In this document: piece by piece, positions 1,546 to 4,454 of the stretch
Position numbering within the stretch: the first letter of the stretch is position 1
How the letters are laid out: every line of letters starts with the position of its first letter
NCBI GenBank assembly: GCA_945903605.1
Contig: CAMDOH010000003.1
Span: forward strand, 5,654 to 69,653
Direction of reading: 5' to 3'
Source: Akkermansia muciniphila
Lineage (GTDB): Bacteria; Verrucomicrobiota; Verrucomicrobiia; Limisphaerales; UBA1100
DNA: 64,000 nt
Notes under the pieces: model-generated
What the model saw: the letters and a program-made list of their open reading frames with translations, nothing else
Told to the model about the DNA's origin: nothing
Databases searched by the model: none
Program-made: the position numbers and the translations under genes

Positions 1546-2123
1546 TTCCTTGGCGATTTCGAATTGGCGGTGGGGAAAAGTTTATCGGGTGGGGGAGTTT
1601 TCTTTGGAGTTTTGGGTTTTGGCGGAGCGACCATCTTTTTATTGACTCCATCCACAATCTGTTTGCATTCCTCGATGGATGCGTCTGGAGTAAAAATCAG
1701 GTTGCCATTGGTAATCGTCTCCGTGAGTAGCAAAGCGGTAAGCCAGCGTAACTGCGGATTCTTTTCTCCGAAAGAGGCTCCGATGACCAGTCTCTTTCCG
1801 CGATGACTAATGGACATATTTTCAAGATAGACTGTGCCGGATCGATTGAGAGTAATATGGAGAACGTGCCCGCCATCGATTGTTTCTCTGAGTGTCAGTG
1901 TGTCGAAAGAATCCATCGCGATTGAAGGAGTGCGATAAACGTGAAGCACTCGCGGAGCAGCTCGAAAAATCTCAATAGGTATCACTCGGCCTTCTTCGAT
2001 AGGGCTGCCTTCAAGGTAAATTGCAACGGTCGCCTTTGGTTTTGTTTGCCCAGGAAGAGTACTGCAAGCATTCAAAAAAAGGCTGACAACGAGAAGTAGA
2101 GTGGTCGCCACTTCATTTTTCAT
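1542..2123 (-). CDS. Hypothetical lipoprotein, co-transcribed with the M23 peptidase
   Basis: The ORF is 1542..2204. An internal Met at 2123 gives MKNEVATTLLLVVSLFLNAC, a canonical lipoprotein signal with an LNAC lipobox. The C-terminus is Pro/Lys-rich. I recognise no family. Confidence 0.5.
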   Translation of the reverse strand: MKNEVATTLLLVVSLFLNACSTLPGQTKPKATVAIYLEGSPIEEGRVIPIEIFRAAPRVLHVYRTPSIAMDSFDTLTLRETIDGGHVLHITLNRSGTVYLENMSISHRGKRLVIGASFGEKNPQLRWLTALLLTETITNGNLIFTPDASIEECKQIVDGVNKKMVAPPKPKTPKKTPPPDKLFPTANSKSPRK

Positions 2124-2168
2124 GTTGCCATGGAGACAGAAATACGGCACGCCTGTAAAGAGTTCGAT

Positions 2169-2273
2169 ATGAGCAAACAGCATAATAAGGTTCAAAAACG
2201 TCAACGTCGTCTGAAATCCCTCAAGCGCAAGAAGGTCGCCGCCAAGTCGCGCACTCGGAAAAAAACTAAGTAG
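2169..2273 (+). CDS. Possible 34-aa Lys/Arg-rich micro-ORF (MSKQHNKVQKRQRRLKSLKRKKVAAKSRTRKKTK)
   Basis: I translated it by hand from ATG 2169 to TAG 2271-2273; it is below the ORF-track cutoff. It has 18 of 34 K/R residues and only a weak AAGAG upstream. It is free of overlap only if the divergent lipoprotein starts at 2123. Confidence 0.25.
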   Translation: MSKQHNKVQKRQRRLKSLKRKKVAAKSRTRKKTK

Positions 2274-2279
2274 TCAGAC

Positions 2280-3405
2280 GGTTCCTGTCGCCGGGCCAAT
2301 AGCGTTTGCTAGTCAAAGTGACTTGCACGCTTGAATTCCACTCCGCATTCGCAGGGGTTTGTTCACACTGCCTGAAAATCGCGGCAGCGTGGTTGTGAAC
2401 AATTCTAATCCCCATCGCAAACGGCTTTGTTTGCAGCGCTATTTCGATGTTCACTTCCAAATCCAACAATCCATTCTGTTAGAAGTTGGCGTATAAGATT
2501 CAATAGTCACTGAGGGATTCCGTGTTAGCGTATTAACAGTTCCTTGAAAGAACCGAGACAATCTGGTGATTCGATTCGCGGATTGTTTTAAAGATAAACC
2601 CAGGTGACTGGGCAAAGAATCAATCAAGCTAGTTAGGTTGATTCCCTCTGATAGACTTTCGGGCTGCTGCCTCACGGTGGTAGTTCGGGAGGATAGGAGG
2701 CAGGATTCACCGACCCCTGCGCTGGCGTTCGCGCGCTGGCGTAATGCGAATTAGGGGCAGGCAGCTAGGGACGATTAGAAGCCGTTCCGCGCTGAGTAAG
2801 AAATTCGGGTGGTTTCGAACCCGAGTGGATCGTGGTTGCCAAGATGGCAGTGGTTACTACCGCGTGCTAGTACAGAGACAAGGCCAGATGGACGTAAGTC
2901 CGTCATGACAGAAAAGACCGCTGCGAGGCGGGAAATAAAGTCGGTTTGTTTCTGTGGGGATAAAAGGGCGCTGGCAGTGCCCGTTTGCTCCGGTAAATAG
3001 GACAGCAGCGACTGAAAAGCCGCTGAAATGTAAGACTAAAGTAACCTGAGAGGTAAGAGGCAAGACCCGTCGCACGGGCCAACGCACCGCCAAAAGCGGT
3101 GGCCGTCCTTGTGCAAAGCGGTTCAGAGGCGAGTCAGCTTGCATTCGTGTCTGAACTAGGTTCGCTAGCGGAGGGACCGCAACCCTTCGCCAAGTGTGCA
3201 AAGAGGCCTCACTCGATAGTCTGGTAGTTGAAAGACTCTAGACGGCCCTGCTATGAGGCCGAGACTCCGTTTGCTCCGGAGAATAGCGTCGGGAAGCCGG
3301 CGACCTATATGGTGCCAAATGTCCGGCAATGGGAAAGAGAGTGTGGCGAACTCCCACCCCCTATTTGACCCGTCCGACGAAAGTCGGGCGGGTCTTTTAT
3401 TTCGT
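2280..3405 (+). ncRNA. Candidate large structured RNA of unknown class (core 2660-3405; 5' boundary uncertain)
   Basis: This ~1.1 kb has no credible ORF; only overlapping 60-115 aa frames on both strands with R/L/P/S-rich junk translations. It contains many stems, including 2359-2367/2394-2402 (9 bp), 2667-2673/2697-2703 (7 bp) and 3121-3127/3150-3156 (7 bp). Further stems are 3168-3175/3183-3190 (8 bp with one G-U), 3205-3211/3254-3260 (7 bp) and CACCGC/GCGGTG near 3086-3102. The exact 13-nt repeat CCGTTTGCTCCGG occurs at 2981-2993 and 3267-3279. The region ends in a strong plus-strand terminator at 3367-3404. Confidence 0.45.
3367..3404 (+). terminator. Strong intrinsic terminator closing the structured region, 66 nt upstream of the cysK ATG
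   Basis: A 12-bp stem pairs GACCCGTCCGAC (3367-3378) with GTCGGGCGGGTC (3383-3394), with one G-U pair and a GAAA tetraloop. TTTTATTTCG follows it. There is no A-tract upstream, so it acts on the plus strand only. Confidence 0.8.
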
Positions 3406-3470
3406 CGTTTGGATTCATCGGAAAAGGCTTGCCCTCGCATCACTTTGTCGGACAATCGTCACCAATACTT

Positions 3471-4454
3471 ATGGGACGCATCTACAACGACATTGTCGAA
3501 ACAGTGGGAAACACTCCTTTGGTTCGGCTCAACAAGGTGACAGCGGGATTGCACGCAACAATCCTGCTAAAGTGTGAGTACTTCAACCCGCTCGGTTCAG
3601 TCAAAGACCGCATCGGCATGGCGATGATCGCCGATGCTGAAAAGCGTGGCATCTTAAAAAAAGACACAATCATTATTGAACCCACCAGCGGCAATACTGG
3701 AATTGCGCTCGCCTTCGTTTGTGCCGCCCGTGGTTATCAACTCATTCTCACGATGCCCGAAACGATGTCGCTGGAACGCAGAACACTGCTGGCTATGCTC
3801 GGCGCCAAACTAATTCTCACGCCAGGACCGCAAGGAATGAAAGGCGCTATTGCCAAGGCCACTGAATTGGCGGCGCAGACTCCTAACTCATGGATCCCGC
3901 AACAATTTGAGAACGAAGCGAACCCAGAAATTCATCGCAAAACAACGGCTGAAGAAATCTGGTCAGACACGGATGGAAAGGTGGATATTTTGATCGCAGC
4001 CGTCGGAACGGGTGGCACAATCACTGGCTGTTACGAAGTGATCAAGCCCCGCAGAGCTTCCTTTCAAGCTATCGCCGTTGAACCGATGGACTCGCCAGTA
4101 ATCTCGCAGACGCTTGCTGGGCAGACTCCCGTTCCGGGGCCGCATAAAATTCAAGGCACCGGTGCCGGGTTTGTGCCGAAGAATCTTCACCTCAAAGATT
4201 CCAGTGGCAACAATCAGATTACGGAATGTGTCAAAGTCTCGAACGACGATTCATTCGCGATGGCACGACGATTGGCGAAGGAAGAGGGGATCTTGGTCGG
4301 GATTTCAACCGGAGCCAACGTAGTGGCTGCAATTCAAGTAGCCAGTCGGCCTGAAAACAAAGGGAAGATTATTGTCACGATTGCGTGTTCCACAGGCGAG
4401 CGATATTTGAGCACCGCTTTGGCGGCGGATGCCAGAGCAGAAGTGGGTGCTTGA
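3471..4454 (+). CDS. cysK: Cysteine synthase A (O-acetylserine sulfhydrylase)
   Basis: The N-terminus [18 protein letters not shown] matches CysK. The PLP-lysine motif SVKDR, TSGNTG and the GTGGT loop are present. I chose ATG 3471 over TTG 3429 by comparison with typical CysK N-termini. Confidence 0.9.

Follow-up and report, generated by a model that had tools for sequence, protein, structure and literature searches.

What occupies the stretch of about 1.1 kb between a lipoprotein gene and cysK in the window (the whole 64,000-nucleotide, or 64-kb, stretch of contig CAMDOH010000003.1 analysed here), in which no ordinary gene is apparent? The initial annotation described positions 2274-3405 as a candidate large structured RNA of unknown class. 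A scan of the whole window against Rfam 15 at the gathering threshold returned a single match, the MISL RNA (RF03079), at 2592-3354 on the plus strand, with a score of 463.1 bits against a gathering score of 274.6 and an E value of 3.4e-139 (7.4e-141 in the local scan). The match spans model positions 1-751 of 751, is not truncated and has an average posterior probability of 0.90. The segment is a full-length member of an already described family, not a new class; because the region scores so highly over the full length of RF03079, the designation "unknown class" is refuted, and by the kind of result, a significant Rfam match, that the initial annotation had itself named as decisive. Its remark that no very large RNA was described for bacteria of the Planctomycetes-Verrucomicrobia-Chlamydiae (PVC) group was equally mistaken, the MISL RNA being already in Rfam with Verrucomicrobiota as its host phylum. 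A claim of discovery does not stand, since Rfam has listed the family for years and a standard scan finds it at once. The exclusion of RNase P, tmRNA, signal recognition particle (SRP) RNA, 6S RNA and group II introns was correct: a permissive cmscan (E<=1) of 2100-3500 returned no Rfam family besides MISL, and in the same interval and at the same threshold none of the covariance models of OLE, GOLLD, ROOL, raiA, HEARO, RNase P, tmRNA, SRP, 6S and group I or II introns matched. The MISL RNA reportedly goes back to the comparative-genomics screen of Weinberg and colleagues of 2017. It carries the Rfam type "Gene; sRNA" (small RNA); in the searchable literature no functional study of it was found, and the sole use found was in Ribonanza, where a segment of a MISL RNA served to exemplify chemical mapping.

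Homologues were collected by scanning 185,579 species-representative genomes with an exact core motif of 21 nucleotides (nt), CCTGAGAGNTAAGAGGCNAGACC, which gave 102 genome loci from 101 assemblies, and in every one of these a MISL homologue was found with nhmmer. Fifteen loci, namely 13 genome loci, mostly from metagenome-assembled genomes (MAGs) of Verrucomicrobiota, and two chimeric IMG/VR contigs, were re-scanned with Rfam; all 15 match RF03079 above the gathering score (339-534 bits), 12 over the full model and three cut by a contig or locus end, and the element measures 702-996 nt. Nearly all of the 102 loci come from Verrucomicrobiota MAGs or isolates (Limisphaerales, Pedosphaera, Opitutaceae, Puniceicoccaceae, Limisphaera sp. 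and Horticoccus sp.), with whose MISL loci the window shares synteny. Each assembly holds one locus; only a Stutzerimonas assembly has two, on short scaffolds that are apparently contaminants. The MISL RNA was also encountered in bins labelled Bifidobacterium, Bifidobacteriaceae, Klebsiella, Stutzerimonas, Acidoferrum, Haliangiales, Limnocylindrales and Proteobacteria (the oddly labelled bins being L012, L018, L020, L021, L042, L049, L054, L062, L063, L065, L074, L075, L085, L088 and L097); several of them, for instance L020, L042, L063 and L074, also show the M23/lipoprotein/small open reading frame (ORF) synteny of the Verrucomicrobiota type, and the contigs are probably mis-binned or mislabelled. 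As for the window itself, contigs 100% identical to its positions 2124-3470 (L103-L106) occur in metagenome assemblies (ENA ERZ27280287; Logan ERR5863105, SRR13399488 and ERR5863119), and the closest GTDB species representative is remote, with a top MISL nhmmer score of only about 220 bits.

From a structural perspective, the Rfam consensus can be laid onto the window as 166 base pairs, of which 153 are canonical. The covariation check that the initial annotation had suggested on collected homologues was carried out on full-length sequences from 73 species, aligned with MAFFT without regard to structure, and the two-sided changes back the fold: 114 of the 166 consensus pairs change on both sides, 78.4% of the cells are paired, a share that drops to 35.7-45.5% once the partners are shifted by 1-3 columns, and none of 500 shuffles attains any of the observed values, in a test that was not blind in so far as the structure was taken from Rfam. 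Moreover, the minimum free energy of the plus strand is -361.6 kcal/mol versus -302.8 +/- 8.2 for shuffled sequences (z=-7.2), with a z of only -2.9 on the minus strand, and seven perfect local helices of at least 7 bp are present versus 3.1 +/- 1.7 in dinucleotide shuffles (6 of 300 reach seven). Score, full length, helices able to form, covariation and a host range in Verrucomicrobiota all place the window copy in RF03079. Its peculiarity is a 34-nt insertion at 2657-2690, in a variable hairpin between model positions about 66 and 77, which is able to pair with a conserved GGAGGCA segment in the window species only.

A coding origin finds no echo in the homologues, as the test for a degraded gene proposed in the initial annotation showed. 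In the RNA part of the 73 sequences no codon periodicity was detected (per-phase entropy 0.60/0.64/0.66, Kruskal p=0.50; period-3 power p=0.73), and the length of only 166 of 1743 indels is divisible by three (remainder 1 in 1039 and remainder 2 in 538). In line with the initial annotation, 2274-3405 contains only short ORFs of 40-115 amino acids (aa), mutually overlapping on both strands. In public assemblies identical over 2124-3470 (L104-L106, 2387-2674) a 95-aa minus-strand gene has been called at window positions 2857-3144; this is a spurious protein, and correct annotation of the MISL RNA removes it.

The alignment also reveals how strongly the primary sequence is held. Of the 763 positions of the RNA body, 384 reach a conservation of 90% or more; 114 are invariant, 66 of them without a partner in the consensus. 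The most conserved core segment (Table 1) takes part in invariant long-range pairs with 3207-3214, the GCCUCACUC region. Conserved GNRA tetraloops are present at 2604-2607 (GUGA) and in the hairpin loop of 3160-3199 (GCAA), further loops of the GNRA type, such as GAAA, close the hairpins 2917-2932 and 3220-3242, and a CCUAAU/UAUGG stretch looks, by eye only, like a tetraloop receptor.

Six local helices had been put forward in the initial annotation. All of them exist in the sequence, at or within one base of the positions given there, and five are perfect complements; 3168-3175/3183-3190 contains one G.U pair, and the CACCGC/GCGGTG helix, which had been placed near 3086-3102, lies at 3085-3090/3096-3101. 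These two, together with 3121-3127/3150-3156, belong to the conserved fold. The other three do not: 2359-2367/2394-2402 is in an unconserved spacer outside the RNA, 2667-2673/2697-2703 is within an insertion common to few other aligned species, and 3205-3211/3254-3260 competes with consensus helices, the only informative substitutions opposing it (two species carry A for G at 3258, a change for which the consensus hairpin shows compensation and the proposed helix does not). At the same place, the invariant GCCUC (3206-3210) and GAGGC (3255-3259) could pair and displace two consensus helices; both sides are almost invariant, and the two informative sequences favour the consensus hairpin.

Where does the gene begin and end? 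Base counts in 75 loci outline a predicted extended -10 promoter of the sigma-70 type. Its -35 hexamer is TAGTCA at 2504-2509 (family consensus TTGTCG), an extended -10 TG at 2523-2524 ends the 16-nt spacer and is followed by one base, and the -10 hexamer is TAGCGT at 2526-2531 (consensus TAnnnT). The counts are T69, T57 and G60 at -36 to -34, T50 and G65 at -17 and -16, T66 and A69 at -14 and -13, and T64 at -9. A further conserved element with the consensus TGSATAAGAATT, at 2491-2501 on the plus strand, keeps a fixed position just 5' of the -35 hexamer in most loci and could be an UP element or a transcription-factor site; a conserved CAG lies about 7 nt past the -10 hexamer. Transcription would start at A2538 or G2539. 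Another sigma-70 site obtained with a simple scan, TTAACA...GACAAT at 2533-2562, was discarded, given that the conserved promoter of fixed position lies elsewhere.

The predicted transcript begins with GUUCAUUGAAAGAAC in the consensus and with GUUCCUUGAAAGAAC in the window (2539-2553; the leader is also written AGUUCAUUG). The leader motif UUCAUUGAAAGAAC is found upstream of the MISL RNA in 90 of 93 testable loci, those of Opitutaceae included, and is followed by a helix predicted with RNAalifold, P0, formed by 2555-2564 with 2580-2589 and enclosing a variable hairpin; at four of the six pairs of P0, both partners have changed in 20-26 of 75 sequences. The Rfam model starts only at GAUAAUCCC (2592), leaving uncovered both the leader with P0 (about 54 nt) and, at the other end, the terminator of about 45 nt. 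The latter was correctly recognised from the start (12 bp with one G.U pair, GAAA loop, T-tract): it forms the 3' end of the RNA, before cysK, and a strong G+C-rich hairpin (typically -25 to -35 kcal/mol) with a T-tract is present in 91 of 93 loci, ending at a median of 47 nt past the Rfam model, with stem sequences that vary between loci. The expectation of an elaborately folded plus-strand transcript, 700-1100 nt long and ending at the GAAA-loop terminator, is in line with our estimate of about 865 nt, from ~2538 to ~3403; a beginning at 2274 is not, as the start is predicted at about 2538 and the first ~215 nt (2274-2490) fall outside the RNA. The comparisons thus demonstrate a single-copy chromosomal MISL RNA gene at 2538-3403 on the plus strand, conserved in Verrucomicrobiota, highly structured and about 865 nt long. 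What the analysis adds is the extended gene model, with a conserved leader and helix, a predicted promoter and a terminator, and the finding that the context is not conserved.

Table 1. Coordinates of the MISL RNA gene, its parts and the adjoining features in the window.
Feature	Position	Strand	Basis or remark
MISL RNA body	2592-3354	+	Rfam RF03079, model positions 1-751
Most conserved core segment, ACCUGAGAGGUAAGAGGCAAGACCCGU	3046-3072	+	Invariant across the 73-species alignment
MISL promoter (predicted)	2491-2531	+	Base counts in 75 loci anchored on the leader motif
5' leader	2538-2591	+	Outside the Rfam model; predicted start, motif and helix P0
Intrinsic terminator	3367-3403	+	12-bp stem 3367-3394, GAAA loop, U-tract to about 3403
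Gene of a 34-aa highly basic protein, MSKQHNKVQKRQRRLKSLKRKKVAAKSRTRKKTK (starting MSKQHNKVQKRQRRLKSLKRKK; also given as MSKQHNKVQKRQRR)	2169-2273	+	Neighbour, not part of the RNA
Unconserved intergenic spacer	2274-2490		nhmmer conservation only over the small ORF; fold z=-1.57

The core motif was also searched for in IMG/VR, where only two of 2.9 million contigs contain it, L107 (1-2407) and L108 (1-2217), both of about 2.3 kb; the two contigs have the identifiers IMGVR_UViG_3300037734_000417 and IMGVR_UViG_3300037663_000426. Both carry the same 590-aa ORF with a GDD motif; motifs A, B and C of an RNA-dependent RNA polymerase (RdRp) were read by eye, and the Pfam RdRP_1 match is below threshold (E=0.008). 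In both contigs the 3' end of this RdRp-like ORF is joined to MISL sequence, in one case in sense, starting within a few bases of Rfam model position 1, and in the other in antisense, starting near model position 735, and the two MISL portions derive from different species. Most simply read, the contigs are reverse-transcription or assembly chimeras in metatranscriptomes, in which case the MISL RNA would be present in RNA pools; should the 590-aa ORF be a viral RdRp, the contigs would represent assembled RNA, an indirect hint of expression. The sense junction is compatible, as a weak indication, with a leader that has been removed and a mature 5' end that coincides with the beginning of the Rfam model.

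Taken together, the best explanation of the locus is that of a MISL RNA gene which appears to be its own transcription unit, a reading in which our confidence is about 0.9. The alternatives that tie the RNA to its neighbourhood fare poorly. In the window the gene order is M23 peptidase (-), lipoprotein (-), small basic ORF (+), MISL (+), cysK (+), rho (+) and WYL regulator (+); the MISL RNA immediately precedes cysK on the same strand, the two being separated by a terminator, and the occurrence of this arrangement in 15 loci would suit a cis-acting leader or riboswitch acting on cysK by way of the terminator 3367-3394. Such control is largely refuted and very improbable, and the cis-leader was rejected on the variability of the downstream genes: among the 66 loci with enough sequence cysK follows directly in only 15, typA/bipA, the downstream gene in Opitutaceae, follows in six, and other genes follow in 45, so that the constant downstream gene of a riboswitch is not found. 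In addition, the strong terminator recurs almost throughout the family, no competing anti-terminator was seen, though without a systematic search for such pairing, and the size is far beyond that of any known riboswitch. Upstream, the M23/lipoprotein block is present in part or in full in 36 of 84 loci, a DEAH helicase in 13 (Opitutaceae; it is taken to be HrpB, Pfam identifying the helicase domains only) and other genes in 35. Because the promoter and the terminator are kept while the neighbours change, the MISL RNA is to be regarded as a stand-alone unit and not as a leader of cysK, and it appears to be transcribed on its own. A decayed coding gene or a mobile or phage-borne element (HEARO/omega-RNA, a group II intron or a GOLLD-like RNA) could be suspected from the stop-free stretches of 83-250 codons in GC-rich homologues, from the 95-aa ORF that public gene callers place inside the RNA and from the two IMG/VR contigs. 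We regard this possibility as refuted, against the lack of codon periodicity, indels that are mostly not multiples of three and pervasive compensatory changes of pairs on the side of the gene, and, on the side of the mobile element, one locus per assembly, stable chromosomal synteny and no transposase, IscB or reverse transcriptase adjoining the loci. The flanks are housekeeping genes and not a context of the phage or mobile type; an origin from phages or plasmids was rejected, as no match was obtained among 72,556 plasmids and the IMG/VR matches are chimeras with an RdRp-like ORF, not phages.

As regards function, we lean, by a little more than even odds, towards a trans-acting housekeeping RNA that would serve as the core of a ribonucleoprotein (RNP), as an RNA-only assembly or as a catalyst, and that would be neither a regulator of its neighbours nor a base-pairing sRNA. 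The action in trans is suggested by the fact that unpaired positions are highly conserved, that one copy is present per genome and that the neighbours change between lineages; the folded shape itself would be the functional entity, in view of the invariant unpaired nucleotides shared across orders, the conserved GNRA tetraloops and the receptor-like CCUAAU/UAUGG stretch. A promoter that combines a -35 hexamer, an extended -10 and an upstream element suggests strong expression. In a bolder and tentative version, the MISL RNA might be the core of an unrecognised housekeeping machine of Verrucomicrobiota (ribozyme, RNP or RNA-only particle), with the leader as a processing or assembly signal, UUCAUUGAAAGAAC and P0 being removed or bound during maturation. 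A regulatory RNA, sequestering a protein like 6S or CsrB or acting as a long base-pairing sRNA, would accord with the Rfam type, with a stand-alone gene that has its own (predicted) promoter and terminator, and with conserved single-stranded stretches such as GGAGGCAGGAUUCACC and GGGAAAGAGAG; it is nevertheless unlikely, in that about 865 nt and at least 25 conserved helices far exceed the needs of known sponges or sRNAs, repeated GGA-loop units are absent, no likeness to 6S or another family is seen at E<=1, and the cross-order conservation (384 of 763 positions) is more typical of RNP or catalytic RNAs. The idea of a ribozyme or of a self-assembling RNA-only particle, as cryo-EM showed for ROOL, GOLLD and OLE, draws on the size, the multi-helix architecture, the GNRA tetraloops with the receptor-like stretch and the invariant unpaired nucleotides, and on the homo-oligomeric assemblies documented for other large orphan bacterial RNAs (PMC12286853); taken by itself it is doubtful, since the tetraloop receptor was read by eye only and an association with phages or tRNA islands, as in ROOL and GOLLD, is missing. 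Functions outside these kinds receive only a small remnant of probability.

Some points weigh against the reading of the MISL RNA as an independent trans-acting gene. Its promoter and its transcription start are predictions. The leader motif is at the same time a DNA palindrome, GTTC-N7-GAAC, at +2 to +15, that is, at the predicted start, and could be a protein operator instead of an RNA element. The long-range helices 18 and 19 of the core are 100% paired and never vary, and covariation is silent on both. The use of one exact motif for collection means that divergent members were missed and that the invariance of the motif is partly circular. Finally, no RNA sequencing, genetics or biochemistry on the MISL RNA was found in the searchable literature, and its function is wholly inferred.

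The region upstream of the promoter is of a different nature. The spacer 2274-2490 folds no better than many of its shuffled versions (13 of 200 fold equally well). Immediately before it, at 2169-2273, there is a real conserved gene, as judged from its substitution pattern: the codon-position entropy is 0.62/0.63/1.24 (p about 3e-5), the third position varying twice as much as the others. The statement that no credible ORF lies between 2123 and 3471 holds within 2274-3405 and fails for this 34-aa gene. Its product belongs to no Pfam or NCBIfam family; homologues of 30-76 aa with the motif MG[KR]Q.NK..KR.RR..Y.KRK were found in 32 of 89 loci, on the same strand and 259-744 nt upstream of the MISL model. 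The gene stays with the lipoprotein/M23 block when the block is displaced (L033 and L081) and is absent near the MISL RNA in all loci of the Opitutales type. Because it travels with the block and is lacking in those loci, its link to the MISL RNA is one of synteny only, and a role of the small basic protein as an RNP partner was rejected as unsupported.

How does the window copy compare with known RNAs? With the MISL family it agrees in its helices, in the invariant core, in the host phylum and in a match that covers the whole model; the gene extends beyond the Rfam model by a 5' leader and a terminator, and nothing excludes membership. OLE, for its part, is an RNA of Firmicutes that works with the partner proteins OapA, OapB and OapC. 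Like the MISL RNA, ROOL, GOLLD and OLE are large, conserved, multi-helix non-coding RNAs without an obvious target in cis, and they show no match to it in sequence or structure. ROOL averages 581 nt (PMC5737381) and is exceeded by the MISL RNA with its about 865 nt, a length within the range of GOLLD, many members of which are over 800 nt (PMC12286853). ROOL and GOLLD frequently reside on phages or close to tRNA islands, whereas the MISL RNA is single-copy and chromosomal, with no conserved partner gene nearby. The raiA motif RNA is likewise a widespread, structured orphan RNA; its position upstream of genes once suggested a cis-regulator, and it is now treated as trans-acting (PMC10861870). 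It differs from the MISL RNA in its fold, in the phyla that carry it (Firmicutes and Actinobacteria) and in its much smaller size, with no cross-match in Rfam. The resemblance of the MISL RNA to ROOL, GOLLD, OLE and raiA is a loose one, that of large and ornate RNAs, and extends neither to the fold nor to the genomic setting. The bacterial RNase P RNA of type A has a different architecture and no covariance-model match to the MISL RNA at E<=1; a short GGUAAGAG string is, we presume, common to the MISL RNA and the P10-12 region of RNase P RNA. The MISL RNA ranks among the longest orphan RNAs of bacteria, and two cultured carriers, Limisphaera sp. and Horticoccus sp., are available for functional work. 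In the role proposed here it would resemble RNase P RNA in being a single-copy, trans-acting housekeeping RNA with invariant unpaired nucleotides.

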